DNA of 64,000 bases. Source: Chiloscyllium plagiosum (taxonomy: Eukaryota). This document shows positions 9,861-61,034 of the stretch, one piece after another. Position numbers and translations under genes: made by a program. The stretch lies in NCBI RefSeq assembly GCF_004010195.1, contig NC_057751.1:12602908-12666907 (forward strand), given 5' to 3'. Positions within the stretch are counted from its first letter, which is position 1; each line of letters starts with the position of its first letter. Below the pieces are notes generated by a model. That model worked only from the letters and a program-made list of their open reading frames with translations, made no database searches and was not told the DNA's origin.

Positions 9861-11873
9861 CCCTTATTAATAACTTCCTTGTTTTGTATGCATTTATAAG
9901 GATGGAACATGTGTGAGGTCACTGAGTGTCATATCACAAGATTTTAGTTTTAAAAATAGGAGCACCAGAAGGAAAAGTAGACAAAAAGTTTTCCTCATGT
10001 TAATCAGCTTTATGAGGTTACAGTTGTTTCAACAGTCACTGGCAGCAGTGGATTCCAGATGCTGACATTTAATTCAGAGCTTTTTTAGGGAAAAAGCTTT
10101 ACTTACATTTTGTTCCTGTTTTATATCCATGATATTTCTGGTCAAAAAATTGTTTTGTGCTGAAGATGCTGTACTTCATGTCAGAAAATGTGTTTATTAG
10201 ATGTATTTATTTCTTTGAATTATTGAGACTCATTCAATCTTAACCCAAGTGGATTCCTGACTTTCTCTTTGGTTTTAGAGATGGATTCAGATGCCACTTG
10301 AACACTGACTGTTGGTCCAATGCATCCTCTTCTGAAGAGTGTTGCATTTCGCAACTGAATCAGATGTTATAATCTGCTCAAAGGGTGTGCAATTGTAATT
10401 GTCCAGTCCCTTCTGCATTTCTACATTTCCCCCCTCTCCCTCATTCCCAGCAGAATTCTGACCTTTTAACTGCCAGACGCACCAAACACTCAAGGCTGAG
10501 ATTTGTTGGGCATTTGCATTCATTTGCTGGCCGCATGCCATCCTTCATATCTAGTCAGCAGTCATGGTATTGTTGCCTTCAGACATGACAGTTTTTGTAA
10601 TGTGTTCATAGCACCATTCTTCATAGGTCCTCCTGTACTGTGAATACCAGCAATCATAGATTTAAAGTAACTCACCTAAAGATTACTTGGAACCTTGTGA
10701 AATATTTGGCCATAGCTCTGTAAGATTTTACAGTCTGCAACCACCAAGTCATGTTTTGGTGTTGATACCTTTGAGTGCATTCTATATTCACAGGAAATGG
10801 TCTGAACTCTTACTGTAGACTTAACTTTGTTGTTTGCTTAATTCTGTAATGTGATCATCTGTCCTTCTAAGCTGTCTGCACTCTTAGAGTGCTGCCATCC
10901 TGCACATTGCGTGTTTGGCACTTCAGTGATGGCACTTGGAATACCTGAGGCTGTCTGTTCTGCAATTCACTTCTATTCCTCTCCACCTACTTAAATCCCC
11001 TTCGTTGAAAACAACTCCTGAAACCTACCTCCTCAACAAAGCTTTTGGTTGTCAGTATTAATATCTCCATATGTGGATCAGTGCTAAATTTGATCGGACA
11101 TTTCTGTGAAGCATCACAGGATATTTTGATGTGCTAAAACCTAAAGCTACTGGCTATTGTTAATTACCTGGGTAAGCTCTGTTACCTCTCCTTCAGTAGA
11201 ACATAAAAATCTGGTGTCACTTTAAACCACCTGATTCCATATTTGACTCAACTTGGATTAATCAGAGAATTTCAAAAGAAAATATGATCTCCCTTTTCAA
11301 GTTCTGTTTTAATAATTCAATTGAATAAGTGGGGAACCTTGTTTTAAAGTCACGTGTGTCCTTTAAATCATTCTGATAACTTCTAATTTTTTTCCCTCCC
11401 TCTTTTGATGATATCTTGACTCGCTGTCAATCCTTACCTGCATTGTATGTTGCATTTGATGTCCGGTATCTTTTTCCCTCCAAGAAAGTAAAAGGACCTG
11501 TGGGCAAGCTGAGAATAGAGGGAGGGTATCAGGTCTATAACATCATCTATCTCTTCTTAGCTACAGTTCCTTTCATGGATGCCGCAGCTGAAGTGTGAGA
11601 GGGATCTGGTATCAAGCATGGTATTGAGTCGTCAGCAGGAAGTGAATCAGTCTCGTGTGTTTGTCAAACATTAAGAAATTGTTGAAGTTCCACTTTTGAA
11701 GGTTGTGATGTCACCTTGGTTGAGCTCCTGGCTTCTATCCACTGTTGACACTCGCTTGTTCAAATCAAACATGGTGTTGAGAAAATGGATAGCACCTGCT
11801 AATTTTCAGGAGTTCAAATTGTCACGCATGATAATTTTGAACGTACTTGAGTAGTCAAACCATTTTTATTGCA

Positions 11874-12120
11874 AACAAAAGTAGAAATCGCTGTAAAATA
11901 TCAGCGGGACTGGCAACATCTGTGGAGAGAAATCAGCGTTAATGTTTCAGGTCCACTGACCCATCCTTAGAACAGTTCGGAGGAACATTGAGGAAGGTTC
12001 TATGGACCTGAAACGTTAACTCTGTTTCTCTGCACAGATGCTGCCAGATGTGCTGAGCTTTTCCAACAATTTCTGGTTTTGTTTCTGATGTCTAGCTCCA
12101 CAGTTCTTTTGGATTTTAGT
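11874..12120. mobile_element. Palindromic Penelope-type insertion with 14-bp TSD
   Basis: Inverted arms around a short spacer. Flanks CCATTTTTATTGCA (11860-11873) and CCACTTTTATTGCA (12121-12134). Degenerate hammerhead core at 11988-12018. Confidence 0.75.
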
Positions 12121-12183
12121 CCACTTTTATTGCAGTTTGAGGCAGTATTTTGTAGAGATGTTTTGTGCATTGTATGATAGAAA

Positions 12184-12895
12184 CATAGTCATAGAGTCAT
12201 AGAGATGTACAGCATGGAAACAGACCCTTCGGTCCAACTTGTCCGTGCCAATCAGATATCCAAACCCGATCTAGTCCCACCTGCTAGCACCTGGCCCATA
12301 TCCCTCCAAACCCTTCCTATTCATATATCCATCCAGATGCATTTTTAAATGTTGCAATTGTACTAGCCTTCACCACTTCCTCTGGCAGCTCATTCCATTC
12401 ACGTACCAACCTCTGAGTGAAAAAGTTGCCATTTTAAATCTTTCCCCTCTCATCATAAACCTATGCCGTCTAGTTCTGGACTCCCCCCACCCCAGGGAAA
12501 AGACTTTGTCTATTTATCCTATCCATGCTCCTCATGATACTGTCACCCCTCAGCCTCCAACCCTCCAGGGAAAACAGCCCTAGCCTATTCCTATAGCTCA
12601 AATCCTCCAACCCTGGCAACATCCTTGTAAATCTTTTCTGAACCCTTTCAAGTGTCACAACATCGTTCCAATAGGAAGGACACCAGAATTGCATGCAATA
12701 TTCCAACAGTGGTCTAACTAACGTCCTGTACAGCCGCAACATGACCTCCCAACTCATGTACTCAATACTCTGAACAATAAAGGAAAGTATACCAAACACT
12801 TTCACTATCCTATCTACCTGCAACTCTACTTTCAAGGAGCTATGAACCTGTACTCCAAGGTCTCTTTGTTCAGCAACACTGCCTGGGACCTTACC
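12184..12895 (-). mobile_element. CR1/HER1 LINE 3' fragment
   Basis: ORF 12470-12835 (LYRTLVRPLLEYC..LERVQKRFTRMLPGL) and a CTCTATGA repeat tail. Confidence 0.95.
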
Positions 12896-13145
12896 TTGAC
12901 AGATCTCAAAATACTTCTCAAAAACGAGTACTTTGATAGTTGCTACTTTTCCAGCAAATGCAGCAGCCAGTTTATATTACTCCACAGTCCGAAGAAAAAG
13001 TAATTTTATGTTGCAGTTGAGGGATAGATAATGCCATGACGCAGTGAGTATTGTTTGGATTTTCTTGGAATAGTATTGAAGGATTTTTGTTTGGTTTACT
13101 GAACAAATTGGCAAAATGGAAAATGAAGTGCAAGACTGTTAATTC

Positions 13146-13821
13146 TGTTGTGAAGATGTCGGTGAACTATCCCTTTTAAGAAAGTTAAAAGCTAGCAGTG
13201 ACCACAACAAGTGTTCTCAATAAGACACAATATAATGTGCTGTACTGACTGGAGTAGCTGGTTGCCTGGAAATGACAAAAAAAAATGCCCTGAAAAAATA
13301 CCAATTTCCAATCAAGTTTGAACAGAGAATATTGACAATCATCATAAAAGCCGATGACATAATTCGATGCCATGGGGTATAAGACCGTGGAAAAATTGAA
13401 CAGTTGGGAGGAGAACTGCTAAGTCTCAGCGGGTAAAAAACTGCCTGAAAAATAGCTCCTTTAAAAAGTACTTTTCAGTCACTAACCTGTGAAGCAGAAT
13501 CCCTAAGAAGAAAAGAAGACACAGGAAGATCCAAATAGAACTAAAAGCTGTCTGGTTTTGAGATGTCTTGTTTTGTAAATCTTAATTGGGAGTTTTATCG
13601 GATTAATATTACAGAAAGAAAGGTAAAAGATAGGTTAGAGTAAGGACTTGTGTGTAGTTGCTAGTTGATTATTCTTTGTTATACTTTAAGAAATAAAGTT
13701 GCTAATTTTTACTTTAAATAGTTCTTGACCACTTGAATTTTTACACATTACTGCACGGGATAAATCTTTTCTGTGTTGCTGGTTTTAAATTAAGCAGCAG
13801 AGTTTACCTCATGTTGTAACA
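13146..13821 (+). mobile_element. Probable solo LTR
   Basis: TGTTG...TAACA termini, flanks AATTC/ATTTC (imperfect TSD), internal TATAA near 13378 and AATAAA at 13692-13697. Confidence 0.55.
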
Positions 13822-18390: not shown

Positions 18391-18705
18391 GATTAGATTA
18401 CTTACAGTGTGGAAACAGGCCCTTTGGGCCAACAAGTCCACACCGACCCGCCGAAGCGCAACCCACCCAGATCCATTCCCCTACATTTACCCCTGCACCT
18501 AACACTATGGGCAATTTAGCATGGCCAATTCACCTACTTGCACATTTTTGGACTGTGGGAGGAAACCGGAGCACCCGGAGAAAACCCACGCAGACACGGG
18601 GAGAATGTGCAAACTCCACACAGTTAGTCGCCTGAGTCAGGAATTGAACCCGGGTCTCTGGCGCTGTGAGGCAGCAGTGCTAACCACTGTGCCACCGTGC
18701 CGCCC
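18391..18705 (-). mobile_element. HE1-type V-SINE, full length and little diverged
   Basis: Minus strand GGGCGGCACGGTGGCACAGTGGTTAGCACTGCTGCCTCACAGCGCCAGAGACCCGGGTTCAATTCC with CpGs retained; TGATTTTG occurs on both flanks. Confidence 0.95.
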
Positions 18706-19259: not shown

Positions 19260-19469
19260 TGAATTGGAGGTGTCGCTGTTGGACCGGGTGTACCAAGTTA
19301 AAAATCACCCAACACCAGGTTATAGTTAACAGGTTTATTTGGAAGCACTAGTTTTCGGAGTGCTGCTCCTTCATCAGGTGGATGTGGAGATGAAGGAGCA
19401 GCACTCCGAAAACTAGTGCTTCCAAATAAACCTGTTGGACTGTAATCTGGTGTTGGGTGATTTTCCAAC
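19260..19469. mobile_element. Palindromic Penelope-type insertion (perfect 48-bp stem)
   Basis: 19328-19375 is the exact reverse complement of 19389-19436. Flanks TGATTACTGTCGA (19247-19259) and TGATTACTATTGA (19470-19482). Confidence 0.85.
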
Positions 19470-19836: not shown

Positions 19837-20532
19837 GTAAGCTGGAACCATAACTTTGTTTCAAGACACATTGATGTTTCACAATAGGTGCGGGCCACAG
19901 TAAAGCCCATAGCTTTTATTGTCTTATTTCTTGATCACTACTCTCCCATGAAATTTCTGTTATCTCTTTTGTTTCTATTGTGTTATGTCTTGTACCTTCC
20001 TTTTGTTCCTGTCATCTTGTGCTATAAATCTGTTTTAGCTTGGTTTTTGGAGAAAGTTATGCCGAAATAATGTTCTCATTCATGAATCTGTCTTTACTGG
20101 AACCCAAAACTTTTTCCATGGTGACTATTTTATATTCATCATGCTCTCTTGATGGTAAGCATTTTCCCCCTCTGCCTACTGTATGCAAAGGCTGTAAACC
20201 ATTCTACTTGTATTTAGAAGAAAGGTAGTTGAAAGAATGTACTAAAATAGAGGTTGCAAAAACTGTAGGTATTTCAATCTGGGAGATGGTGTGTCCTGTG
20301 TGGTGCCAAATATTGTTGTTTTACTCTATAAAGACAATTAAACCAATAGGTTTGGTATGCAGTTGAAATGTGCTGTAGTATGACTTTGACTACTGAATGA
20401 AAAACTGGTCATGTATTTTGCAGGAAAAATTAATTTCCTGTGGACTAACCGTGCTGCTTTAATGACAGAACTAAATCATGTCCATGCACTGGAAGAGGGA
20501 GGCTAGCAAAACCTGGCAGAGATACATCTATG

Positions 20533-20618
20533 CTGAAAATGTGTTGCTGGAAAAGCGCAGCAGGTCAGGCAGCATCCAGGGAACAGGAGAATCGACGTTT
20601 CAGGCATAAGCCCTTCCT
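20533..20618 (-). mobile_element. 86-bp single-arm Penelope-type insertion with perfect 16-bp TSD
   Basis: CAGAGATACATCTATG at 20517-20532 and 20619-20634; the insert corresponds to one arm of the 60346-60566 element. Confidence 0.9.
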
Positions 20619-21787
20619 CAGAGATACATCTATGTCACAGCTGAGGATTGTAGTTAGCAGTAGTGTTTGCACTGTCCCACTCATCTCCACAGTTTGTATC
20701 TTGGTTAATTGTAAGAATAGAAATTGCTGGAAATACTTAACAGGTTGAGCAGCATCTACTGAGAAAAAAACGATAGCATTTCGGTGTGTGAAGTTTTGTC
20801 AGAATTCCTGCTGAGTTTCATGTTTTCAGTTCCAATTTTGTATTTGCCTTTTTCTTCATTCAGATGTTTCACTTGTGTGGAAACAGGAATATTTTTCGTA
20901 GCTGCATGAAATACTATTTGGGGAAACTGATCCCTCTCTGGGTAGGATCATTCTTAGCAAACCTTGCTTTCTGTTAATAGTAAAACCAAATGGCAATATT
21001 TGGTGCTGTTTCCTTCTGCCAGCTCCTAAACATAATAGTTACGCCACAAAGTACAATTTAGACAATTCCAGGCTCTCATATACTCACTCTTTAGTTCCCA
21101 CAGGCTACAGAGGTGAGTGTGGACACAGTAGGTTCAGGATAGCTCTCAACTCTTAGCACAGTCTCACTATAGCAAACTGAATGGATAATTTAGGAAGTAG
21201 TGGGGGGAAAATTTAGAATGAATAGTGCTTGTTCAGGGTCAATATTTTTGGTTCAGGGTCATCAGTGCCTTGGTTCCCTGTGTTTATAATGCTGAATTGA
21301 TTTTTCTATTCTGCTTTATAAGGTCTGACACTGGATGGTGAAATCTGCTTTGATAATATTGACAGAATGAGCTGGCATATTAGTACCAATTAGTGTGCTA
21401 GTGGTGCTTTCTATGGCTGCCTCACTTGGTTCTCTGGTCACAGATGTGGGGCTAGTTGTGAGTCTGCAATGTGAGCTTTTTCCCAAATGCTGGTAATCAT
21501 GTACTCTTGTAGAAGTGAGAATTACATGCGCGCACACACAATGCTTCCTGTATCATATAAAAATCGGCTGTACTTGGGTGATTTTTCCTGATTATTTTCT
21601 TCGTGATGGATTTGGCAATAAGGGTTTTGGTTCTGGTTTTACTTGGGAGGTAAATTCTGAGAGGGAAGCCTGTGAAACTCCACTTCATCTGCATCAGTTC
21701 CCAGCCTGTTACGGAGCAGAGCTTGAATAAAAGTTGCCTTTATCATATTGCGTGTGATCTTTCATGTAAACACTGTCATCTCCACAG

Positions 21788-25055: not shown

Positions 25056-25157
25056 GTGTTGAAAAAGATTGCCAAATACATCCAGGAACAGAATGAGAAG
25101 ACTTATGCTCCACGAGGCCTCGTTATAGTCGATCCAATTGAAAGAGGATTGAGAGTT
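25056..25157 (+). CDS. GOLGA7: GOLGA7 coding exon 4
   Basis: gactgcag|GTG...AGA GTT|gtatcctttt; 102 nt; [34 protein letters not shown]. Confidence 0.97.
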
Positions 25158-25719
25158 GTATCCTTTTTGCTTTCTCTGGTTTTGCATCTCCTGTTTTTCA
25201 ATCCATCTTCTTAGCTGCTTTGCATGCTGCCCATCTTCTTCACGTAGCCATATATGAAGAGACTTCAAGACTTTATAATATTTTTGTGGAGGTGTTGGAC
25301 TGGAGTGGGCAAAGTTAAAAATCTCCCAACACTAGGTTATAGTTCATCAGGTTTATTTGGAAGTACCAGCTTTTGGAGCGCTGTTCCTTCTTCAGCTAGC
25401 TGTGGAACAGAATGATAAGACAGAATTTAAAGCAAAAGATCAGTGTCACGCAACGGATATGATATATTGAACAAACCTAGATTGCTGCTAAGTCTCCCAT
25501 CTTTAGAATGGGTTCCAGGTTTCAGTTCATTATTATGTAAATCCCAGAACTACTTTTAAGTCATATTCTCAAGATAACTTAAGGTTTTATAAAAAATAAA
25601 AGTGACCTCTCAGCTCAGACAATGCATCAAAGACATGAGGTTAGGGTCTGTCTGTATCTCAATGTTGAGTCGGACTGGTTCTATTTCTAAAGTAGGAATT
25701 TATAAAATGTTACATGGAT

Positions 25720-25910
25720 AGACTGACTGTGTGGAGTTTGCACCAGTCCAAAGATGTGCAGGTCAGGTGAACGGGCAATTTAGCATGGCCCATAGTGTTA
25801 GGTAAGGGGTAAATATAGGGGTATGGGTGGGTTACGCTTCGGCGGGTTGGTGTGGACTTGTTGGGCCGAAGGGCCTGTATCCACACTGTAATGTAATCTA
25901 ATCTCATCTA
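25720..25910 (+). mobile_element. 5'-truncated HE1-type SINE
   Basis: GACTGACTGTGTGGAGTTTGCAC...GGGCCGAAGGGCCTGTATCCACACTGTAATGTAATCTAATCT. Confidence 0.9.
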
Positions 25911-26032
25911 AAATCAAAGGACAGACTTGTGTGTTTTTTGACCAAAATAGAATGTGCAATTACAATTCTGCAAATGCAAATTTACCCCAGAGACTTATAC
26001 GTGATTGAGGGAGCAGCGCTGTAAAAGCTATA

Positions 26033-26174
26033 CAGAACAACCTCGATTATCTGAAATAGACGGGCGGGGAGTATTTTCTTCAGAAAACTGAGAGTTTGAT
26101 CACGGATTGTTCAGGTAATGGATAGCATTTTTACAGGACCCTAAGATCTTGTTCAGATAATTGGGGTTTTACTG
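26033..26174. mobile_element. Tc1/mariner (Tigger/pogo-like) MITE
   Basis: TA|CAGAACAACCTCGATTATCTGAA ... TTCAGATAATTGGGGTTTTACTG|TA: imperfect TIRs of about 23 bp and a TA duplication. Confidence 0.8.
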
Positions 26175-26819
26175 TACTTCCAAATAAACCTGTTAGACTT
26201 TAACCTGGTGTTGTGTGATTTTTAGCTTCATAATATTGTGACAAAGCTGCCTCCAGCATGTTGTGAACTCAAACATATCGCCTCTCCTGCTGTAATTTTA
26301 ACTTCAGTTCAAGCATTCTACTCCGTCTTGAACGTGATCTGGAGAAAGTTGAAAGTTTTCTTCTGAAAATCATCTCTAGAAGTTTGTGAATACAGAATGT
26401 ATCTGGTTTTGTTATTTCAGCAGTTCAAAAGTCATGTTAATTGCTCCAAATCTTATTTTCCCCAGTTGAACCCCTGTGCATTAGTTATTGTTTTCTTTAG
26501 AGAGCAGATGAACACCCTGCTTGATCCACCTTGCTATTGTGGAGTGCGCTGTCTGCCCAGCTTAAATAGTCTTCGGTTAACGACCAGTCATCTAATGATC
26601 AAATTTTAGCCTTTTAAGACTGAGATGTGAAAAATATATTCACTCAGTGTTGTGAATCTTTGAAAATATATTGCAGTATATTCAAAATGGGAATTGTCCC
26701 AAATTTGTAATCATTGGGAAAGTGGAATTGAGGTGTTAGTTTAGTTACTGAATGTTAAAGGTTTGAGGGACTGATCCTGTTTCTTGCGGACATTATAAGG
26801 TGCTTTTGTTCTTGTCTTG

Positions 26820-32581: not shown

Positions 32582-33492
32582 AGTGCAGAGAAGCTAAGGT
32601 ATGAACTTGCTGGACTGTGGTCACATCTCTGTCTGAAGCAGCAACACATAGGATACTAATTTCTCATTCAAGATCCCTGAAGCTCCATGACCATGGAACA
32701 TTGCCAACATCATACTTGATCATGAAATGACAGGTTGGAGTATCTCTCCCACAGATTTTTGAAAAGCCACTTGATATAGTATAGAAGCGATACAAAACAA
32801 AATCAGTTTCGTTTTCACCTGTTGTCAAGTTCCATTTATCTTGATTGTTATAAATTGTTCAGGCTGGTAATTAGGGGAAGAAAAGCAAGAGTCTTCAGTG
32901 TACAACAGTGCAAAGAAAAATTCAAGTACTTAAAATGTGCTTCAATGAGATGAGATTTCACACTAGCTTCGATTGAGAATTAAATTTAAATGTGCAGAAT
33001 TGAATGCCAACATTTTTGAATTGGTCTAGTTTTCATCAGCATTTACTTTAAGATTTGGACATAGAATGTGTGCCCTGTTTGAAATCTGAATGACCAGAAA
33101 TTTGGATTTCTATACCCAAACCACTTTTGTGTTTAATAAAGTGATAGATACAAGCAGTATTTGCCTATTGTCTCTCAACCTCAGTTTTTCTATGGGCAAG
33201 AAAACACATGGTTGTCCTTGTTCTTTGTGTTTACTCATGTTTCTGCTTCCTTCTCCCCAGTGTTCAACCTTAGCCCCAGAATCAGAAGGGCATACCCTGC
33301 TGCTGGCAGTGTCATTTTTATGACCCCTGAATGACACAGCTTAGATGTTTGTGTTGTGGTGCTGTGAAATCAGTCACTGATCACATTTTGGAATCTCAAA
33401 GGCCAATCTTACTGTGTGAGATGCCAGGCTTGTAGCCCATCAGCTTGTGCTGGGTTGGTGATTGTGTCTTGGAATTATAAAGTTTATTTTAA

Positions 33493-33689
33493 ACAAGAAT
33501 CGAAGTTGCTGGAAAAGCTAAGCTGGTCTAGCAGCATCTATGAAGTGAAATCAGAGTTAACGTTTCGGGTCTGAGGAAGGGTCACCGGACCCGAAACGTT
33601 AACTCTGATTTCTCTTCACAGATGCTGCTGGATCTGCCGAGCTATTCCAGCAACTTCAGTTCGAGTTTCTGATTTAGAGCATCTGCAGT
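33493..33689 (+). mobile_element. Palindromic Penelope-type insertion with intact hammerhead-like core
   Basis: 33547-33571 pairs perfectly with 33588-33612. CTGAGGA-A-GGGTC-ACCG-GACCC-GAAACGTTA at 33571-33601. Flanks TTATAAAGTTTATTTTAA and TTATAAGGTTAATTTTAA. Confidence 0.85.
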
Positions 33690-36600
33690 TTATAAGGTTA
33701 ATTTTAAGCCTGGTGAAATCCTGTTACAGCTCCATTCTCCAAGATTATTAGTTCACGTGCCTTGGGGAACTTTGTGTCCCACTGTCAGGAGCACTACTTG
33801 GCCGTGTGTTTAGGTTGAAGCTGGGCTTGAGGGAAACTGTATAGCCTGAAGCTTGGAAGTAGCATTGAATGTTGATGCAGACCTTTTCCACGAAAGGATT
33901 TGATGTAGGGTGATAAGATGAGGGATTGAGGGAAGAGACATGGAGTACAAAAGTGTTTTATGGAAAAGACTTTTAGAGATGCATCAAATGTACTTTAGCC
34001 CTATTCGCACATAGGCAGAGAAAGTGATTAGCACACCTGCAGAACATGAATTCCTTTGCGTGCTGCTTTTAAATTTGTTTTAAGTTGCAGCTGGCTCCAC
34101 AATATTTTCTTCTTATGTGTTGCAATGACTCAGTTTAACACCACTAATTCTGTCTAATCTGTTTTCAGTGTGATTGTATTTAAGTCTGCTGTTCGAGGTT
34201 TTTCTTAACATTCAGCCCACTCACTGTTTCATTGTTTGATTTGGAAGTGTATTCACAAGGACTTTAGTCTGCCTCACCAAGTGCTGATATATCCTTCCGA
34301 TAGTTTGGCTCAGCAGCACAGTGAGATTTGTAAATGTGATTAAGTAATTACATTTATACAGGTTATGAAAAGGTGGCTCCTTGTTTTACGGAGCACTGCT
34401 TTATGGGTTTGTGCATTGCGCTTTGAACAAGTTATGATTTGTGCCTGCATTTCGCAGAAACTTGGACTTCGTTTCACAGGGTAATTACAGATGAGTAAGG
34501 CCCTTCATTGCTTTGCTATTCCATTCAGAAAAATGTATGGATATTTATTTTGTTTCATCAAATACACAACACAGAGAAAAGGCCACTTTGCCCAACAGTT
34601 CCTGTGAGCATTGACGCTCTACCCTACCCAGAAGGATATTGCAGCTATTGATCATGTGTTTTGGGATTAAATCTGTTGGAAAAAGGAATAAAATGACTGG
34701 TGCAACTGGTGATTGTCAGCCATCGGTATAAGTGTTCCGTTTGAATCACCAAAATGGCCAACTACTTCAATTTTTCTTGTACTGTCTTGAATACACAAAC
34801 TTACACCATGCTTTTTAAATGGACTTAATCTGTTTTTAGAAAGCAAAACTCCCTCCAAAATGAAGTGGCAACACTGGTTAGCATCTAAACTGTATCCTGA
34901 ATTACAAATGCTCTCCTTTTACTCCGAAACAGACATCATCATGCAACACAATCCAACAAAGTGTGCAGAGATGATCTTTTGCTTATAATAAATGATGGGA
35001 TGAAAACTCATAGCCCACTCTGTTTCTTGTTGACAAAGTCCGATTACTGACAGCGAGAGACAGATGGGGAGGATCTTTGGCTTGGATGAAAATCAAGCTG
35101 GACCTAAGATTTGGAAACTCGTCACAGTTCAACTTTGTCATGTTTCCAAGTCTGAGAGGAGGGTTCTGGGATTTTCTTCCTTTATGCTTACCTAGTTTTC
35201 TGAAAACACAAATCAAGTCCAGAAAGGATTGCTAAACAACCATCAACACAAAAATCCCCATAATCTGTTCAAAAGACAGCTTTTGCAGAAATTAAGTTCA
35301 GTCAAATCATCTCTTGCCTCCTAAAAAGATTTGTTTTTATTTTTCCAAAGTAGTTTGATTTTATGTAATCAGCAGGTAGATCATAGCACACATTTAGCTG
35401 TTGACTTCATTACCAAGAAATAGTGATTTAAAGATCTTTCTTTAATCCAAAGTGTCCAAACAGTTCAGTTTCTTCCACTTATTAATCTAGTCCATGCATA
35501 TGTACTCCTCACCATGGACCAGAATTGTATTATGATGTTTAGACAAATTCTAATAAATTTCATTTTATTTTGTTTATTTACAGTGGGACCAAGGCTGTAA
35601 AGGATACAGGCGAATTCTGCTGGGTATCATTTCTGTACCAAACACGTACCCTACCTCGTCTCTGGACTATCATTCCACAAACTCTTGAGGACCTTGGTGC
35701 CACTTTAAACATTGGATGTTTTGTAATCTGCTGTATCCTCAAATAATGTATGCTATGTGAGGGGTAGGTGGGGGTAAGCAACTAACTATTGTGATCAAAT
35801 TAGTATTTTCTTTCTGAAATGTTTTCTTCAAAAAAATCAAAAGAATTTCTAAATTAACATCACTAGAAGACCACAAGAAAGAGTTGAAGGAAATGTTTAG
35901 AGGTATATGGTCATGATACTCTCTGGGAGCATAAGTTAATCGCTGTCAGAAGCCTTGGATATTTTTCCAGGATGAATTGAAGATGCTTTTGTTTCTTGCT
36001 GTGTTGGGACAAGTGGATGTGCCAGCACAATACATTTAGCCCTAAGAGTACTGGAGATTTTTGATGCCTAAATCAAAACTCTCATTTGGTTTACCTGATG
36101 TTTAATTCCACCAAGCTATGTCTAATTGGCTTGATAGACAGTGTCACTGCCATGTATATCATGCTGTCAAATCTAGGAAGTCTCAGGATATCTGGGGAGT
36201 CTCGGCTGAGGCATCAGTAGGGGCAGAAAGCAGTATCCAATTATAGTTGGTTTGGATTCCTGGATCTCTGTCCCTGATGGACCTGCTTGTCCAAGTTTTG
36301 GATCAGATCAGGTTAATTTGAGAGATGATGAAAGCCTTGCAACATTTAGCAACTGAGCTCAGTGATCCTATAGTTGAGCGTGAGGTGAAGCCTGCTGAGA
36401 AGTGCACGGAACAGACTGAAGACAGCAGCAAGTGAAAGAAGGTGCCTTATACAATTGGGGAAAAAAGAAAATTTGGGTTACTTCAGGATATTTGTAACAG
36501 TATGTTGTTAAGTAGAAGTAGAAACTGGTAAGGAGCATGCTTTAAAACAGCAAAGACAATAAAAGTGTTCAAGCGGCACCCCAACTACAAATATAAAATG

Positions 36601-40723: not shown

Positions 40724-42304
40724 AGTCATAGAGATGTACAGCATGGAAACAGACTGTTTGGTCCAACCCATCCATGCCGACCAGATATCCCAATCCAATC
40801 TAGTCCCACCTGCCAGCACCTGGCCCATATCCCTCCAAACCCTTCCTATTCATATACCCATCCAAATGCCTTTTAAATATTGCAATTGTACCAGCCTCCA
40901 CCACATCCTCTGGCAGCTCATTCCATACACATACCACCCTTTGTGTGAAAAGGTTGCCCCTTAGATCTCTTCTATATCTTTCCCCTCTCACCCTAAGCCT
41001 TTGCCCTCCATTCTGGACTCCCCGACCGCAGGGAAAAGACTTTGCCTATTTACCCTATCCATGCCCCTCATAATTTTGTAAACCTCTATAAAGTCACGGT
41101 GGCACAGTGGTTAGCACTGCTGCCTCACAGCGCCGGAGACCCGGGTTCAATTCCCACCTTAGGCGACTGACTGTGTGGAGTTTGCACGTTCTCCCCGTGT
41201 CTGCCTGGGTTTCTGCCGGGTGCTCCAGTTTCCTCCCACAGTCCAAAGATGTGCAGGTCAGGTGAATTGGCCCCCGTAGTGTTAGGTAAGGAGTAAATGT
41301 AGGGTTATGGGTGGGTTGCGCTTCGGCGGGTCGGTGTGGACATGTTGGGCCGAAGGGCCTGTTTCCACACTGTAATGTAATGTAATCTAATCTAATCAAA
41401 ATCACCCCTCAGCTTCTCGTGTTCCAGGGAAAACAGCTCCAGCCTGTTCAGCCTCTACACATAGCTCAAATCCTCCAACCCTGGCAACATCTTTGTAAAT
41501 CCTTTCTGAACCTTTCAAGTTTCACAACATCTTTCTGATAGGAAGGAGACCAGAATTGCATGCAATATTCCAACAATGTCCTATACAGTCGGAACATGAG
41601 CTCCCGACTCCTGTATTCAATACTCTGACCAATAAAGGAAAGCATACCAAACATCACCTTCACTATCCTATCTACCTGCGACTCCACTTCCAAGGAGCTA
41701 TGAACCTGTACTCCAAGGGCTCTTTGTTCAGCAACACTCTCACCAGGACCTTGCCATTAAGTGCATAAGTCTTGCTAAGGTTTGCTTTCCCAAAATGCAG
41801 CACCTCTCATTTATCTGAATTAAACTCCATCTGCCAATTCTCAGCCCATTAGCCCATCTGATCAAGATCCTGTTGTGATCGGAGGTTACCTTCTTCACTG
41901 TCCACCACACCTCCAATTTTGGTGTCATCTGCAAACTACCTCTTATGCTCGCATCCAAATCATTTATGTAAATGATGAAAAGTAGTGGACCCAGCACCAA
42001 TCCTTGTGACACTCCACTGGTCACAGACCTCCAGTCTGAAAAACAATCCTCACCACCCTCTGTCTCCTTTGAGCCAGTTCAGTATCCAAATGGCTAGTTC
42101 TCTTTATTCTGTGAGAACCAGTCTCCCATGGGGAACCTTGTCGAACGCCTTATAGATCATATAGATCACATCTACTGCTCTGCCCTCATCAATCCTCTTT
42201 GTTACTCATTCAAAAAATTCAATCAAGTTTGTGAGACATGATTTCCCACACACAAAGCCATATTGACTATCTCTAATCAGTCCTTGCCCTTCCAAATACA
42301 TGTG
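40724..42304 (-). mobile_element. CR1/HER1 LINE, 5'-truncated and frameshifted, interrupted by a SINE
   Basis: ORF fragments SGVSQGLVLGPLLFIIYINDL, KSCLTNLIEFFE and FTQRVVCVWNELPE. Confidence 0.95.
41096..41398 (+). mobile_element. HE1-type V-SINE nested in a CR1
   Basis: CACGGTGGCACAGTGGTTAGCACTGCTGCCTCACAGCGCCGG head and (TCTAA)n tail; the CR1 sequence resumes at ATCACCCCTCAGC. Confidence 0.95.
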
Positions 42305-44938: not shown

Positions 44939-45147
44939 GCAGAAGAGGGTACTGCAGATGCTGGAGATTAGAGTCAAGCTTAGAGTGGTGCTGGAAAAGC
45001 ACAGCAGGTCAGGCAGCATCCGAGGAGCAAGAAAATCGATGTTCCGGGCAAAAACCCTTCATTGGGCTTTTGCCTGAAACGTTGACTTTCCTGCTCCTCG
45101 GATGTTGCCTGACCTGCTGTGTTTTCCAGCACCACTCTAATCTTGAT
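44939..45147. mobile_element. Palindromic Penelope-type insertion inside a CR1, with 12-bp TSD
   Basis: Inverted arms; flanks TGCCAATTCTTG (44927-44938) and TGCCAACTCTTG (45148-45159). Confidence 0.85.
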
Positions 45148-45518
45148 TGCCAACTCTTGTACTCAATGCCCTGTCCAATGAGGTTAAGCATGCTATATGC
45201 CTGCTTGACCACTTTATTAACCTGCATTGCCATCTTCAGATAACAATGGACCTGAACACCCAGATCTCTCTGTACGTCAATTTTCCCCAGCAATTTTCCA
45301 TTTGCTTTATAGTTCGCTCTTAGATTGGATCTTCCAAAATGCATCACCTCACATTTGCCTGGATTGGACTCCATCTGCTATTTCTCTGCCCATCTGTCCA
45401 ATCTATCTATATTCTGCTTTATTCTCTGACAGTCTCCTTCACTATCTGCTACTCCACCAATCTTGGTGTCATCTGCAAACTTGCTAATCAGGCAACTGAT
45501 AACTTCCTCCAAATCATT

Positions 45519-47059: not shown

Positions 47060-49850
47060 ATGGTGGTGTGGCAGCAGCTCGCAGCAGCCTCTCTCGACCT
47101 AGGGCTATTTAATTTCAGTTTTCTAAGGCACAGAAGGAACAGGAACAGGAAACGATGTTTGCAGATACTGTTAGAGTCTGCAAACACTGCTACAGTGCAC
47201 AAACCGGCCAAAAATGAACCTGAATGGAGAGCCGTTGAAGGGGTTACGCAATCTTGGCTTGCTGCGGAGACCAGGACTCCAGTCCTCTGCTTTGCCTGAT
47301 GCTGGTAGCCTGGGTGTTTAGCCATCCAGAAGTGCTGTGTGAGAAAGTGGAAGCACGGTAAGTGGGCAGGACTTCATGCTTGGCCAAAAACAAACTCATC
47401 TAGCCAGATCTTCATCTATTCTGCTCTCCAATGTCTGCTACCTGGGCAACAAGTTGGACTGCATCCAACTGCGGCAGGTATCTCAGCGTGAGTTTAGAGA
47501 CTGCTGCGTCCCTGTTTTCATGGGAACCTGGCTTAGTGACAGAGTTCCAGACACCGCCATCCAGCTAGATGGGCTCGCCTTTTTTCGCGCCAGCAGAAAA
47601 GCAGCTCTGTGCAGTAAAACACGAGGTGGGGGTCTGCGTGTCTACATCAAAATAGTGCAAGGACTCTGTGCAAGTCTCCAGTTACTGCTCATCACTGGTG
47701 GAGTTTGTGACTGTTAGATGAAAACCAGTTTATTTGCTACTGGAATTCACCACTGTCCTTATAGTCGTAGTGTAAATTCCTCCCAATGCTAATGCTCAGG
47801 AGACACTCTGTGAACTGTATGGGGCTATTAGTAGACTGCAAAATGTCTACTAATGGACTGTTTATTGTTGCTGGAGATTTTAACCATGCTAATCTCAAGT
47901 CGGTGCTCCCTAAATTCCATCAGCATGTGGACTTTGTGATGAGAGGGCGAGCACGCTGAATCTTGTTTATACAAATATCCCAATGCATACAGGGCAGAGT
48001 CTTTGCCCCATCTCGGCTCCTCAGATCACATCTCTGTTATGCTAATCCCAGCAAACAGACCATTCATCAGATGTGTCAATCTGGTTCTGAAGCAGGTGAA
48101 AACCTGGCTGGCAGGAACCATTTCTGCTCTTCAAGACTGTTTTGAGCGCACTGATTAGCACGAGTTCAGGGAAACCGTAACTAATGGTGATTCCATCAAC
48201 TTGGTGTCGGTGATTTGCGACATTAACAAGTGTATTGGTGACGGTGCTGTGTCCAAGACCATCACTTCTCGCCCCAACCAGAAGCCGTGGATGACTGCGA
48301 AGGTGCGCACACTGCTGAGGACCTGTGATTCCATCTTCAGAGCTGATGACAAGGCAGCTCTAACAACAGCAAGGGCCAACCTGACCCAGGCCATCAAAGC
48401 GGCAAAGGCATGCACACACATTCACAGAATACGCAGCCTTCTTCAGGACAGCAGTGATATGCGGAGCATGTGGAAGGGCATTCAGGTCAACAGCAACCAC
48501 AGAATAGCATCGCCTGCTCATGCTGGTGATGCCTCCCTTCCGGATAATGCATGGTTTGAGGCACAAAATGATGTGGCAGCGAAGAAGTCCAACCCCTGCT
48601 CCCCCCCCCCACCCCCCACCTTCTCCCCGCAATGACCAGGTGCTGTGTCTTGTCACAGCTGGCATGAGGAAAACCCTACGCAAAGTCAACCCACGTAAGG
48701 CTGCTGGACCAGATAACATCCCTGGCAGAATGCTCAGAGGATGCTCTGACATGCTGGCAGATGTTCTCCAGGACATTTTTAACATGTCTCTGAGCTGCAC
48801 CATAGTTCCAACGTGCTATAAGGCCACTGCCATCATCCCCATCCCAAAGAAGTCTTCAGTGTTCTGCCTCAACGACTGCCGCCCTGTTGTGTTAACACCC
48901 ATCTTCATGAAGTGTTTTAAGATGCTCGTGATGAGGCATATTAAGATGTTGCTGCCCCCCACTCCTCCACTGGACATGCTGCAGTTCGCGTATCATCCCA
49001 GCCACTCAACAGATGATGCCACCTCCACCACCCTCCATTTGGCCCTCACCTACCTGAAGAAGAAGGACACTTAGGTCAGGTCACTATTCATAGACTTCAG
49101 TTCTGCATTTAACACTATCAGTCCTCGGCACCTGACTGGAAAGCTGAGCCTGCTGGGCTTGAATACCTCCTTTTGTAACTGGATCCTGGACTTCCTGACT
49201 GGGAGACCTCAGTCAGTCTGGATTGGGAACAGCATCTCCAACATCACCACACTGTGCATGGGTGCCCCTCAGGGCTGTGTGCTCAGTCCACTGCTGTTCA
49301 TCCTGCTGACACACAATGATGCAGCGATACACAGTTCAAATCATATTATTAAGTTTGCTAATGACACGACAGTAGTGGGTCTCATTAGCAGGAATGATGA
49401 GTTAGCATACAGAGAGAGGTGCAGCAGGTAATGGATGGTGCAGAGCCAACAACCTGTCTCTGAATGTGGACAAAACAAAAGAGATGGTTGTTGACTTTAG
49501 GACGGCATGGAGCAATCACTCTCTGCTGGACATCGTGAAAATTGTGAAGAGCACAAAATTTCTTGGTGTCCACCAGGTGGGGAATCTCACCTGGTCCCTC
49601 AACACCGGCTCCATAGTCAAGAAAGCCCAGCAGCATCTCTACTTTCTGCGTAGGTTGAGGAAAGCCCACCTGCCATACCCCCATCCTCACCTCATTCCAC
49701 GGAGCAGCTGCATTACTGTTTGCTTCGGAAATTGCACTGTCTCAGATCCTAAGACCATACAGCGGATAGTGAGGACAGTTGAGAAGATCATCAGGCTCTC
49801 TCTTCTCTCCATTACACACATTTACACTACACATTGCATCCGCAAGCCTA
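47060..49850 (+). mobile_element. Rex1/Babar LINE, near full length, inactivated (APE + RT)
   Basis: APE-like [103 protein letters not shown]. Many stops and frameshifts. Confidence 0.93.
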
Positions 49851-50091
49851 ATGTCCGAAGTGACATTAGCATCTTGATCTCCACAAAGTATTCAAAGGTT
49901 TATTTGAAGAATCACAATGTTCAAAAGAAAATGTCCAATTCTTTGAAGGAAATCTCCCAATAACACTTTATTATGGGTTTGGGGGTAGAATTCTTTGCTT
50001 CAAATTTGTTCAAAGAATGTGGTCATAGCCTGAGCTCTCAAGTTAGTGTTGCAGTTTCTTACGTTATCATGTCTGTTTTCATTTCCTACTC

Positions 50092-53010: not shown

Positions 53011-54197
53011 TCATAGAGTCATAGAGATGTACAGCATGGAAACAGACCCTTTGGTCCAACTCATCCATGCTGATCAGATATCCTAACCCAATCTCGTCCC
53101 ACCTGCCAGCACCCAGCCCGTATCCCCCTAAACCCTTCCTATTCACATACTCATCCAGATGCCTTTTAAATATTGCAATTCAACCAGCCTCCACCACCTC
53201 CTCAGGCAGCTCATTCCATACATGCACCACCCTCTGCATGAAAACTTGCCCCTTAGGTCCCTTTTATACCTTCTCCCTCTCACCCTAAACCTATGCCCTC
53301 TAGTTCTGGAATCCCCCACCCCAGGGAAAATACTTTGTCTATTTATCATATCCATGCCCTTCATGATTTTAAAAACCTCTGTAACGTCACCCCTCAGCCT
53401 CCAACGCTCCAGGGAAAACAGCCCCAGCGTATTCAGCCTCTCCCTAGAGCTCAAATCTCCAACCCTGGCAATATCCTTGTAAATTTTTCTGAACCATTTC
53501 AAGTTTCACAACAGCCTTCCTATAGGAAGGAGACCAGAATTGCACGCAGTATTCCAACAGTGGCCTAACCAATGTCCTGTGCAGCCACAACATGACCTCC
53601 CAGCTCCGGTACTCAATACTCTGATACTCTCTAGGACCTTACCATTAAGTATTTAAGTCCTATTAAGATTTGCTTTCCCAAAACGCAGCACCTCACATTT
53701 ATCTAAATTAAACTAAATCTGCCACTCCTCAGCCATTGGCCCATCTGATCAAGATCCCGGTGTAATCTGAAGTAACCTTCTTTGCTGTCCACTACACCTC
53801 CAATTTTAGTGTCATCTGCAAACTTACTAACTATATCTCTTATGCTCACATCCAAATCATCTATATAAATGACAAAAATTAGTGGACCCAGCATCAATTC
53901 TTTTGGCACTCCACTGGTCACATGCCTCCAGTCTGAAAAACAACCCTCACCACCACCCTCTGTCTTCTACCTTTGAGCTAGTTTTGTATCCAAGCGGCAA
54001 GTTGTCCCTGTGTTCCATGAGATCTAACCTTGCCAACCAGTTTCCCATGGGGAACCTTGTCAAACGCCTTACTGAAGTCCATATACATCATGTCTACTGC
54101 TCTGCCCTCATCAATCTTCTTTGTTAATTCTTCAAAACTCAATCACGTTTGTGAGACATGATTTCCCACAAAGCCATGTTGACTATCCCTAATCAGT
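53011..54197 (-). mobile_element. CR1/HER1 LINE, 5'-truncated
   Basis: CTCTATGA tail; ORFs SGVPKELMLGPLIFVIYIDDL..KFADDTK and LFSLERWRLRGD. Confidence 0.95.
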
Positions 54198-56075: not shown

Positions 56076-56189
56076 ATTGAATCGTAGTCTAGAACCATAA
56101 GTTCTTTTGCTGATTGGAGTTTGTAACTCTTCTGCTGAAAGAGAGATAGAGTGCATTTCCACTCTATGAATCTGAAATAAAAACACAAG

Positions 56190-57548: not shown

Positions 57549-57895
57549 GGGCAGCACAGTGGTTCTGTGGTTAGCACTTCTACATCACAGCAGCAGGTAC
57601 CTGGGTTCGATTCCAGCCTCAGGCGACTGTCTGTGTGGAGTTTGCATGTTCTCTTTGTGTCTGCGTGGGTTTTCTCTGGGTGTTCCAGTTTCCTCCCACT
57701 ATCCAAAGATGTGCAGGTTAGGATGGATTGGGAATGCTATATTACTTATAGTGTCCAGGAATGTGCAGGCTAGATAGAGTAGCCAAGGAAATTGCAGGAT
57801 GGTAGGGGATCTGTCTGGGTGGGATGCTTTTCAAAGGGTCAGTGTGGACTTGATGGGCTGAATGACCTGTTTCCACACTGTAGGAATTCTATGAT
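57549..57895 (+). mobile_element. HE1-type V-SINE
   Basis: GGGCAGCACAGTGGTTCTGTGGTTAGCAC head, GGGTTCGATTCC B box, CTGTTTCCACACTGTAGG tail. Confidence 0.9.
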
Positions 57896-58249
57896 AGTCT
57901 ATAATCTATGCACCAGAGAAAGTGGGATTTAAGTGTTGCTGTCATTCCATCTGTGTACGGACCGATGGGCTGTGGTGAGGGCAGCATGGGGGGAGGAAAT
58001 GGTGATGGTGGGGAGGTTCTTGAAGGTGGTTTGATATTTCATCCAAGAAGGAGGTGCAGTGTTGCATAGAAGTATCAGCCACAACTTTCTCCGATGTGTG
58101 CCACTTTGTGTGTCTGAATGATTCTGTCACAAGGTAGGGATTTCATGATATTAGTGACCATGATATGTGACCAAGCGATGATAGTTTGAGATGAGGAATT
58201 GTTTCTTATAAAATAAGGTTCAGTCCTCTGGAAGCTTGAGTAGCCTAAC

Positions 58250-59126
58250 CAAACTGGTGTCATGTCGAATGAAGAAGATTGTCTTAAAGTAGAACAGGAC
58301 ATGATTGGATGGGCTGATGTGCCAAGGAGTGGCAGAAGGAGTTTAACTTAGATAAATGTGAGGTGCTGCATTTTGATGAGACAAATCAGGGCGGGACCTA
58401 TATCCTTAATGGTCAGGTCCTGGGGAGTGTTGCTGAACAGAGAGACCTTGGACTACAGGTTCATAGTTCGTTAAAAGTGAAGTCACGGGTAGTTGGAGTG
58501 GTGAAGAAGTCTTTTGCAGTGCTTGCCTTCATTGATCAGTGCATTGAGTTATAGGAGTTGGGAGATCATGTTGCGATATTGGTTTGGAATACTGTGTTCA
58601 ATTCTGGTCTTCCTGCTAAAGGTTTTGAAAACTTGAAAGGGTTCAGAAAAGATTTACAAGGATATTGCCAGGGTTGGAGGATTTGACCTACAAAGAGAGG
58701 CTGAATAGGCTGGGACTGGTTTGCCTGAAGCATCAGAGATTGACGAGTGACCTTATAAAGGTCTATAAAATCATGAGGGGCATGGATAGGCTGAAGAGAC
58801 AAGATTTTTTCCCTAGTATGAGGAGTCCAAAACTAGCGGGCATAGGTTTAAGATGAGAGGCGAAGGATATAAAAGGGACCTGAAGGACAACGTTTTTACA
58901 CAGAGGGTGGTGCGCATATGGAATCAGCTGCCAGAGGAAGTGGTGGGGGCTGGTACAATTACAACAGTTGAAAGGCATCTGGATGGGTATATGAATAGGA
59001 AGGGTTTAGAGGGACATGGACTAAGTGCTGGCAAATGGGACTCAATTAGTTGGGATATCTGATCAGCATGGATGAGTTGGACCAAAGGGTCTGTTTCTGT
59101 GCTGTTTAACTCCATGACTCTATGAC
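58250..59126 (+). mobile_element. CR1/HER1 LINE 3' fragment
   Basis: QRDLGLQVHSSLK, PGLEDLTYKERLNRLGL and FTQRVVRIWNQLPE; ATGACTCTATGA tail. Confidence 0.95.
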
Positions 59127-59376
59127 TGTATGGACTGCAGCAGTTCAAGAAGGCAGCTGTCCACCACCTTCTCAAAGTCAACTCCAATAGGCAATAAATG
59201 CTTGCTGCCCACAAGACCATGAATTATGAACTTTAAAAATTGGAATAAAAGATATTACCAGGTTCTGAACACAGCTCACACACTTCCCCCTTTCAGTAGC
59301 TGAACAAACAGTCACTGTTGGTCATGCTTCACCATGTAATAGTTTAGTATAATGAGCAGAGTATCTCTGCACATTG

Positions 59377-59549
59377 TGTGACTGTAATCTTTCACTATAA
59401 ATTCTGTGTCTTATGATCCTGTTTCACAGTTACCCGATGAAGGAGCAGCGCTCTGGAAGCTAGTGCTTCTGAATAAACCTGTTGGATTATAACCTGGTGT
59501 TGTGTGATTTTTAACTTTGTCTAGTTCAGTCCAACACTGGCTCCTCCAC
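59377..59549 (+). mobile_element. Single-arm Penelope-type insertion with 14-bp TSD
   Basis: Flanks ATCTCTGCACATTG (59363-59376) and ATCTCCGCACATTG (59550-59563); degenerate hammerhead core at 59434-59462 followed by AATAAA. Confidence 0.8.
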
Positions 59550-60345
59550 ATCTCCGCACATTGACCAATTCAAGAAATTGAGGCTTCTGTGATGGAAGTT
59601 TCCAAACATGAATCAAAGAGCCACAAAGTACCACTGAAAGATTGAAAAATGCATGAATCAAGATGGAGCTGACAGATGTGTTCCCTCCAGCTGGATGTCC
59701 TTACATTGCATTCACTGTTCAATAAACAGCACTGGTAATGGGTTTTGTCCGTCATCTGCTGGTCATGCCAGGCATCTTGTAGGTAAAGACTTCAGGACAA
59801 GCAAAATCCTTTGCAATTTGATAAGCACTGGTTTCCAGTGTTGGTGTGCATAGGTGCTACGTCATTCATGTCCCAGCAAGTGACTAGGATGACCTGAAGC
59901 AACAGTGGGACACTAAATGTTCGGACTGGTGGAGGATCTACACTGTTTCTTAGCATTTTGCTTGCAATGCAGAGTCACACAAGCAGCATAGGTTCAATGC
60001 CCCTATTGGCTGAGGTGACTGTTAAGCTCCTACCTTCTCAACCTCTCCCCTCTTCTGAGACACAGAAATCCTCATCTTAAATTCACCACCAGTCTCTTCC
60101 ATGAGCCAGCAGCCCTGCTTTTCAAGGGAGATCAACTTTGATTGTATTGAATGAACACAAAGAACTCTGGATGCTGGAAATCTGAAATAAAAATAGACAA
60201 TGTTGAAGAATCTCAGCAGATCTGGCAGCATCTGTAGGGAGAGAAATAGAGTTAATATTCCAAGTCCTTGGACATGAATGACGACCGGCCCATCCTTTAG
60301 TCCTTTGCTTGAACAATCTTTATCCTTGGTTTCACCGTGACTGTG

Positions 60346-60566
60346 AGGAGAAAGTGAGGACTGGAGGTGCTGGAGATCAGAGCTGAAAATGTGTTGCTGG
60401 AAAAGCGCAGCAGGTCAGTCAGCATCCAAGGAGCAGGAGAATCGATGTTTCGGGCATGAGCCTTCTTTTCCTGAAGAAGGGCTCATGCCCGAAACGTAGA
60501 TTCTCCTGCTCCTTGGATGCTGCCTGACCTGCTGCACTTTTCCAGCAACACATTTTCAGCTCTTCT
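60346..60566. mobile_element. Palindromic Penelope-type insertion with perfect 11-bp TSD
   Basis: CCGTGACTGTG at 60335-60345 and 60567-60577; inverted arms of about 90 bp (60379-60467 and 60474-60563); CTGAAGA-A-GGGC-TCAT-GCCC-GAAACGTA at 60471-60498. Confidence 0.9.
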
Positions 60567-61034
60567 CCGTGACTGTGCCTGGGCAGAATTTGGTCTCATT
60601 GCTGGTGGAATTTGTTCTGCTTTTGATTAGTGCACCACATTGCCATATAGACAGAGGAAATGCAGACTTCCTGGAGGCACAAAGCATGTGATATGATGGA
60701 CATGATGGGTTGGTTCTTTTGAACAGTGTGGATAAAACTATCATAAGGGCAATTAATTTTGCATGGTGTGTATGTTCACGTTTTCATGGAGATCATGGAC
60801 AGGGTTGGGAAAGCAGTCTGGAAAGGTGGACGGTGTGAATAAGAGGGTGGATTTAGAAGGGAGGTGTTAAAGGCACGGTCACAGTCAATGATAAGTGAGG
60901 ATGCCATTGCAGTTGTGTGTTTATTCCAATCAATTATGATTAGCATTGACTCTTAAAGATTCATCCAGGATGGCTGCTCACTGTTGTTTTCAACAGGATA
61001 TCATGGAGAGATGGGACCCGCAGCAGATGACAAA

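Follow-up and report, generated by a model that had tools for sequence, protein, structure and literature searches.

What gave rise to the short, mostly palindromic, hammerhead-bearing repeats scattered through a 64,000-nucleotide stretch of the Chiloscyllium plagiosum genome (contig NC_057751.1, positions 12,602,908 to 12,666,907; hereafter the window)? A preliminary description had taken eight such insertions for non-autonomous, ribozyme-bearing retroelements of Penelope type. All eight proved to be real and to lie where they had been placed, and there is very little doubt that they are end-pieces, derived from the pseudo-long terminal repeat (pLTR), of Penelope-like elements (PLEs) that carry a previously described minimal hammerhead; they are not a separate mobile mini-element family. 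As to how they arose, we favor, at a probability of roughly 65%, twin-primed run-off copying, one insertion at a time, in which the front end of the element RNA, still capped and uncleaved, would be copied onto both nicked target strands.

The insertions belong to three sequence families, A, B and C (Table 1), of which B is related to A. All three are the 3' ends of PLEs within the same genome, which bears out the Penelope link originally proposed. The loci that we designate L046 and L047 contain open reading frames (ORFs) of 754 and 749 amino acids with matches to RVT_1, the reverse transcriptase (RT), and to the GIY-YIG endonuclease (EN), and both end at the family A hammerhead, so that a single ORF with RT and C-terminal GIY-YIG is contiguous with the ends found in the window. 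In L046 the RVT_1 match is above its cut-off and the GIY-YIG match (E 2.5e-4, 21.7 bits) falls just under its cut-off of 22.6. Close copies of the 60346 arm run into the GIY-YIG coding region, a first look at the genome returning 124,565 candidates, a figure that is not a copy number. Family C has its own GIY-YIG-like endonuclease pieces upstream of the C end in L220 (9,216 genome candidates) and family B a decayed endonuclease C-terminus upstream; endonuclease pieces are all that was seen for these two families. A tblastn search of phage records with the PLE protein, which has no bearing on the question, found nothing.

The arrangement of pLTR, optional 30-40 bp tail, inverted 5' copy and target-site duplication (TSD) is that of EN-containing (EN+) PLEs. 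L217 is a full-length, decayed copy, with an inverted piece, a tail, a 5' untranslated region (UTR), an RT-EN region and a 3' end with tail; its 5' UTR also follows the tail in L097. Because the order in both loci is tail and then 5' UTR, the tail corresponds to the first ~33 nt after the pLTR, before the ORF. L097 also holds a partial tandem (2134-2710) in which pLTR, tail and 130 nt of 5' UTR are followed by a further pLTR and tail and by an inverted stub, a copy that passes the usual tail end. A CX2-5CxxC linker could be read in L046, L047 and L220. This motif marks the Neptune/Nematis type (PMC8557442; this and the other publications are cited from their accessible portions), and by sequence the families appear to fit a PLE of that type.

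The genome-wide figures come from an arbitrary sample of 174 segments, each of 10 kb and taken at round coordinates along contigs C1-C24 (placed contigs only), amounting to 1,678,614 non-N bases of a 3.56-Gb genome. L179 was excluded from the insertion counts, leaving 1,668,614 bases; it is a minisatellite of ~44-bp units from family A +31..+74, free of the hammerhead (positions with a sign are counted from hammerhead C3 = 0), and it had skewed the first breakpoint histogram. We counted 397 insertions, or one per 4.2 kb, rather than the one per 8 kb or so that had been estimated from the window. The sample contains 101 intact cores, against 0-2 in each of five dinucleotide shuffles. Stem I is also present in 78 of the 101, which extrapolates to ~165,000 intact-looking cores with stem I genome-wide (bootstrap 124,000-206,000). 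Palindromic events, extrapolated from 106 in 1.67 Mb, would number in the region of 200,000. A fourth family of hammerheads, whose stem II has 6-7 bp and which lacks the extra A of the A/B/C type, was seen at L071:9734(+), L086:521(+) and in L119 (- strand, scan position 238), and probably represents another PLE lineage.

Six of the window insertions are head-to-head inverted repeats, as had been reported, and the other two are single arms. The same orientation prevails in the sample, where 136 pairs are head-to-head and 3 tail-to-tail among 610 arms. In a stricter set of palindromes, exactly one tail is present in 96 of 106, none in 6 and two in 4. Single arms occur with and without the tail (76/68 in family A, 21/22 in B and 21/16 in C), and outer ends cluster either around +120 to +125, where the tail ends, or around +85 to +92, where it starts. 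TSDs were scored by a fixed test that called for at least 11 nt with at most 1 mismatch, or at least 14 nt with at most 2, adjoining both ends; random right flanks passed in 5 of 2000 trials. Seven of the eight insertions pass this test, with TSD lengths of 12-18 nt instead of the 11-18 bp first given; at 19260 there is no more than a degenerate 14-mer, mismatched at 3 positions. In young pairs of the sample, a TSD of at least 9 nt was found in 51 of 63 (controls 5/178), mostly of 14-17 bp with a mode of 15-16 bp, and with an AT content of 67% against a background of 59%.

These features bear on several explanations of the palindromes. The one first suggested, that palindromes or short arms are self-propagating mini-elements, transcribed, processed by their hammerheads and re-inserted by PLE proteins, we now consider very unlikely. 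The very high copy number and the conservation of cores with covariation speak for it, as does the existence of non-autonomous PLE derivatives (PMC8557442; bioRxiv 10.64898/2026.07.22.740005), and copies extending beyond -40 (98/397), such as 59377 in the window, keep a TATA-like box and could be secondary sources. In one targeted search the same junction recurred in 8 of 30 loci, but these had been selected by a query containing that junction; in the arbitrary sample 93 of 96 pairs have distinct junctions, a number that alignment noise inflates somewhat in old copies, and for palindromes this largely refutes the idea. Insertion sizes, moreover, form a continuous gradation up to coding copies, most copies start downstream of the candidate promoter described below, the two outer ends coincide with the RT start sites that we infer, the cut site has few 5' ends, and cores decay neutrally, like neighboring sites. 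Fold-back self-priming, in which a single cDNA (or, as PMC3846280 proposes, an antisense RNA) folds back close to the hammerhead and serves as its own template while endonuclease resolution trims the tail of the second arm, has more to recommend it, and we rate it as unlikely. It would account for the alleles shared by the two arms: in 51 young family A pairs (targeted loci included), 3 of 137 comparisons at three diagnostic sites are discordant, where ~65 would be expected of independent arms. CpG decay is private to the arms (4 shared, 52 private), and since the arms share template alleles but not this decay, later gene conversion is argued against. Fold-back would likewise explain coupled arm lengths, long arms being paired with one another (both arms long in 6, one only in 5, neither in 85; P=2e-6). 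The CUGANGA region is quasi-palindromic, and microhomology overlaps occur at 21 of 63 young junctions; of the others, 9 are blunt, 3 have more than 12 extra bases and 30 have 1-12, the last of these counting against fold-back. The cDNA version requires the tail arm to reach further 5', which it does in 39 pairs, whereas the tail-less arm reaches further in 53; given paired long arms of which neither is consistently the longer, simple fold-back on cDNA is disfavored. Nor would fold-back lead one to expect that about half of single arms are tail-less when only 6 of 106 pairs are tail-less on both arms. A version with an antisense template is compatible with these tests. Twin priming on two separate RNAs joined by a hammerhead dimer, one RNA per RT subunit, strikes us as highly improbable. 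The palindromic ACGU/AGCU suits intermolecular pairing (PMC4209133) and a dimer is predicted for the Anolis protein (PMC11167929), but the arms agree at the diagnostic sites to within the mutation rate and the long arms end close together, 5 of 6 pairs within 15 nt; these figures would still accommodate two RNAs from one source locus.

The 5' ends of the arms (identity at least 85%) fall within -10..+10 in 136 of 249 cases in family A, 21 of 36 in B and 35 of 71 in C, with a mode at -4/-3 in family A. Position -4 is the first base of stem I and also the A of what we take to be an initiator-like motif. Some 30 nt upstream of this edge, family C has TATAAAT, family B an ATAAAA motif and family A a conserved TTATCT; this TATA-position motif and the initiator-like one are kept while the spacer varies. 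When arms abutting a partner or a short inverted remnant were removed, an extra G preceded the candidate start in 12 of 23 arms of the arbitrary sample, against 12 of 61 at other ends (P=0.006). Genomic ends, motif position and extra G together suggest that the RNA starts at the edge of stem I. The pile-up might instead mark, on a longer RNA, RT stops where the hammerhead is folded or bound by protein, or else a hot spot of microhomology, with no transcription start involved. The coincidence of the peak with the stem I edge would suit such a stop, the share of the -3 peak that TTC microhomology accounts for would suit a hot spot, and the extra G is missing from RNA loose ends. RT, however, meets the structure from its 3' side (+31), yet the ends lie past it; single arms peak at -4/-3 as well (19/126); and there remain the extra-G excess and the motif that three families conserve 30-32 nt upstream. 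We therefore regard a stop or hot spot as distinctly unlikely.

In the twin-primed run-off copying that we prefer, RNA polymerase II would start at the first base of stem I, ~30 nt behind the TATA-position motif, so that the hammerhead would fill the first ~36 nt of the RNA. The endonuclease would nick both target strands ~15-16 bp apart; one nick would prime RT from the end of the tail and the other from its start, with a single RNA, or RNAs of a single locus, as template. Synthesis of both cDNAs would run off the capped terminus, the cap being copied in some cases as an additional G; the cDNAs would then be trimmed and joined head-to-head through short microhomology or a few extra bases. Loss of one arm would leave a single copy with or without a tail. 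In favor of this are the head-to-head orientation, the one-sided tail, the TSDs, the template alleles common to the two arms, the pairing of long arms with neither consistently the longer, and the 5' ends with their extra G and upstream motif; the outer ends also agree with the two RT starts demonstrated in vitro for the Anolis element (PMC11167929). Since the front end would be copied onto both strands, the mirror-image layout long seen in PLEs would be explained.

Several observations weigh against this proposal. Copying one RNA twice requires strand displacement, which is so far a supposition, and a TSD was found in only 25 of 119 single arms (controls 5/178). The extra-G test used ad hoc exclusions, and the unfiltered excess (14/31 in family A, 5/6 in family C) is weaker. 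The -3 peak (38 arms) can be put down in the main to a TTC microhomology, and part of the 5' peak is therefore the work of junction chemistry. RNA reads from a separate data set, a poly(A) single-cell library (run X19), do show the edge seen in the genomic ends, dropping in depth at -4, and 93% run on into unrelated sequence and thus represent dispersed copies in host transcripts; the consensus of their loose ends at -4 starts with a letter other than the extra G (106 reads, agreement 0.37). In Drosophila virilis the promoter is TATA-less and internal, with a start well upstream of the hammerhead region (PMC2377424, PMC4209133), so the layout of TATA motif and stem I start is not universal. 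Lastly, 14 of 249 family A ends lie between the cut site and +3 where 4.3 are expected, and could reflect minor cleavage. The corresponding counts are 0/36 in B and 2/71 in C, and a depletion at +21..+27 together with CpG-decayed flanks suggests that cut-site ends are an alignment-edge artifact; with so few ends, and those confounded, most templates appear to be uncleaved. An apparent cut-site peak of 21 ends was set aside, as it fell to 14 without the L179 minisatellite and the rest is confounded by CpG decay. RNA read ends showed no pile-up at the hammerhead cut site.

The reading of the cores as minimal hammerheads is supported. They have the features of the minimal type I PLE hammerhead (CUGANGA, GAAA, an extra nucleotide, stem II, a palindromic 15.2/16.2, NUH and a short stem I), and the core is kept in 10 of 11 subfamily consensuses, the remaining, old consensus having a CpG-decayed palindrome. 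The extra A that had been called consistent is present in 97 of the 101 intact cores of the sample. In the window the cores, including the two described as degenerate, are at the places originally given, although stem I has lost its 5' strand at 33571 and 20621 and most copies are decayed. Stem II varies in pairs across subfamilies (GGGC/GCCC, GGGUC/GACCC, GAGUC/GACUC, GGAGC/GCUCC), as does stem I (AUUC/GAAU, AGUU/AACU, CAC/GUG). Among 27 natural A and B copies, two-sided changes were found in 6 of 8 stem I/II pairs (16 cells; 0 of 500 shuffles as high), which upholds the covariation suspected for stem II; the signal is driven mainly by the A/B split, hence by few independent events, and in most A copies one of the stem I pairs is mismatched (U-U).

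Individual copies, on the other hand, showed no excess conservation of the core, with 35 changes in 1170 positions (3.0%) against 151 in 4226 (3.6%; P=0.37). Because cores covary between subfamilies but are unprotected in individual copies, selection acted on source elements and not on copies, and the hammerhead is likely a decaying passenger in the copies. A scan of the window with Rfam, which the preliminary description had recommended, matched no hammerhead model at E<=10 and returned only chance microRNA-hairpin matches below the gathering score; this is expected of motifs without stem III. The minimum-energy fold was not the hammerhead in any of three window copies (60471, 33571, 19377), folding z-scores of natural ribozyme regions were unremarkable (-0.4 to -1.7), and cofolding of two copies swapped stems I and II without closing stem III. 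As a speculation on its role, the hammerhead might remove the cap-bearing first ~32 nt by a protein-assisted, dimer-dependent cleavage. A tail-body helix of 7-9 bp, about +44..+52 with +94..+106, is predicted in all three families, from unrelated sequence in C, and is a candidate RT-recognition structure; it is 96.7% paired in A and B, where no two-sided change was found and covariation is thus not shown.

Minimal hammerhead, extra nucleotide, inverted pLTR and tail are all published PLE features. The hammerheads share with those of Cervera and De la Pena 2014 (PMC4209133) the core, the short helix I, the extra nucleotide between 9 and 10.1, the G10.1-C11.1 pair and the palindromic 15.2/16.2, as well as their occurrence mostly as single motifs from truncated PLEs with some opposite-strand pairs; the extra nucleotide, the palindromic stem III and weak dimer cleavage were published there. 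Stem II has 4-5 bp here and 7-8 bp in Schistosoma (PMC4209133). That source gives ~4,000 motifs for coelacanth and ~9,000 for Xenopus and, in its accessible portion, mentions no shark, where we extrapolate ~165,000 with another descriptor; axolotl, with a far larger genome, has 126,247 hammerheads (PMC7229834), again under another descriptor, a total that our extrapolated 124,000-206,000 matches or exceeds.

Insertions of EN+ PLEs are likewise described with an inverted, 5'-truncated pLTR, a 30-40 bp tail at one end and a TSD (PMC3846280, PMC8557442). They share with ours the head-to-head inverted copy, the one-sided tail, the TSD and heavy 5' truncation, as well as the Neptune/Nematis linker (PMC8557442), whereas the commonest product here is a ~200-bp inverted unit without an ORF and TSDs are mostly 14-17 bp against 8-10 bp in Adineta. 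The explanation offered in the accessible portions of these two sources is self-priming or endonuclease resolution, not twin priming. The PLE protein of Anolis nicks and extends both strands in vitro, with two RT starts flanking the tail and an uncleaved RNA template (PMC11167929). Poseidon of Anolis thus shares with the present elements two internal RT starts flanking the tail, nicking and extension of both strands, AT-rich targets and uncleaved RNA; it belongs to another clade, its ORF starts inside the hammerhead while in family A the tail precedes the ORF, and its two RT starts are not tied to inverted insertions in that work.

Non-LTR retrozymes, which have been found in one chondrichthyan genome (PMC7229834; bioRxiv 10.64898/2026.07.22.740005), resemble the insertions in being non-coding, in deriving from PLE pLTRs and in having a type I hammerhead and long TSDs. 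They are, however, head-to-tail arrays processed to circular RNA, where ours are single or head-to-head units with unique junctions; none of the eight window insertions is tandem, and the one partial tandem seen is that in L097.

A short interspersed element (SINE)-like non-autonomous family with a fixed internal structure taken from a master was rejected in view of the 93 distinct junctions in 96 palindromes, and a miniature inverted-repeat transposable element in view of asymmetric ends, with a tail on one arm, and TSDs of 11-19 bp rather than short and fixed.

In L1 twin priming both target nicks prime, and in retroviral minus-strand strong-stop synthesis RT is primed near the RNA 5' end and runs off the cap. 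The former inverts non-overlapping segments, unlike the double copying of one segment here, and the tRNA primer and integrase of the latter play no part.

Coordinates are collected in Table 1, which includes two family B remnants that had been overlooked. The insertion given as 950 bp long owes part of that length to nested elements.

Table 1. PLE end-pieces in the window (TSD, target-site duplication; core, hammerhead core).
Position	Feature	Strand	Arms and other contents	Core	TSD
11874..12120	Family B, head-to-head		Tail-less arm 11873-11973 (-); tail arm 11989-12108 (+)	Decayed, at 11988	11860-11873 / 12121-12134
19260..19468	Family C, head-to-head		Tail arm 19260-19389 (-); tail-less arm 19389-19464 (+)	19349-19377 (-), in tail arm; palindrome mutated	Degenerate
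20533..20621	Family A, single tail-less arm	-	Spans 0..+89	20594-20621 (-, GUC); stem I 5' strand gone	Exact, 16 bp; 20517-20532 / 20619-20634
25284..26225	Family C, head-to-head (the 25285 insertion)		Long tail arm from 25291 (-), extending to at least -189; nested SINE-like repeat ~25721-25918; tail-less arm ~26001-26228 (+), interrupted by small TA-flanked inverted-repeat element ~26030-26176		
33493..33689	Family B, head-to-head		Tail-less arm 33491-33571 (-); tail arm 33570-33690 (+)	33571-33601 (+), intact, in tail arm	18 bp, 2 mismatches
44939..45147	Family A, head-to-head		Tail arm 44943-45062 (-); tail-less arm 45064-45146 (+)	Decayed or truncated	12 bp
59377..59549	Family C, single arm with tail	+	Spans -53..+118; TATA-like box retained	Decayed, at 59434	14 bp
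60346..60562	Family A, head-to-head		Tail arm 60346-60467 (-); tail-less arm 60468-60562 (+)	60471-60498 (+, GUA), in tail-less arm	15 bp
20713..20768	Family B, old remnant, additional to the eight	-			
60160..60267	Family B, old arm with tail, additional to the eight	-			

The SINE-like repeat nested in the 25285 insertion is abundant in the window, occurring also at 3485-3701, 18391-18629 and 41165-41400. The small element at 26030-26176 has ~30-bp inverted ends and a few relatives in the sample (L197, L198, L222). Fragments resembling the RT coding sequence of long interspersed elements lie at 4598-5014, 12470-12976, 45009-45377, 48159-49963 and 53143-53505, and an assembly gap at about 5050-6005. 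The GC-rich segment 8352-9168 resembles a promoter or first exon, and the insertions may be in or near a host gene.

Family C differs in one further respect. In run X19, 825 reads end in poly(A) that was added near +55 of this family (L099:8121). The addition point lies 12 nt beyond a hexamer, AATAAA or ATTAAA in 91 of 106 copies, and is followed by a GU-rich stretch. The A/T variant preserves the signal, and a homologous hexamer is found in the window arms at 19260 and 25285. The reads represent at least three alleles, and no genomic A-run was seen at this position among 117 family C arms examined; element and host transcripts are both possible sources. Families A2-A6 and B are without such a hexamer. 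Family C thus disperses poly(A) sites whose use is seen in RNA. Both of the RT starts that we infer are downstream of the site, so on a retroviral-like reading of the pLTR a finished family C mRNA would be primed only near its 5' end.

That reading, which we offer tentatively and think rather doubtful, is that the PLE pLTR acts as a U3-R-U5 unit: transcription would start from a TATA/initiator promoter at the hammerhead, the hammerhead would fill R, and the poly(A) site of family C would close it. The normal first product would be a pair of strong-stop cDNAs, one on each target strand, full-length insertion would need a jump from the 5' R to the 3' R aided by a hammerhead dimer formed between the two R copies, and cleavage, by taking off the cap, would serve as a feedback switch. 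If this were true, the genome would hold hundreds of thousands of strong-stop cDNA pairs sealed as palindromes.

Among the titles and abstract openings consulted, which leave aside subscription papers, Repbase and Dfam, we found no description of these families, of PLE twin priming or of a pLTR poly(A) site. The formation of inverted pLTRs and one-sided tails, and the role of the hammerhead, are still called undefined in the accessible part of PMC8557442. The ends of the palindromes yield a set of rules (each pair with a single tail and a single template, a stagger of 15-16 bp, arms that stop where the hammerhead begins, RNA that had not been cut), and these rules make both PLE insertion and hammerhead function testable in the existing in vitro system.

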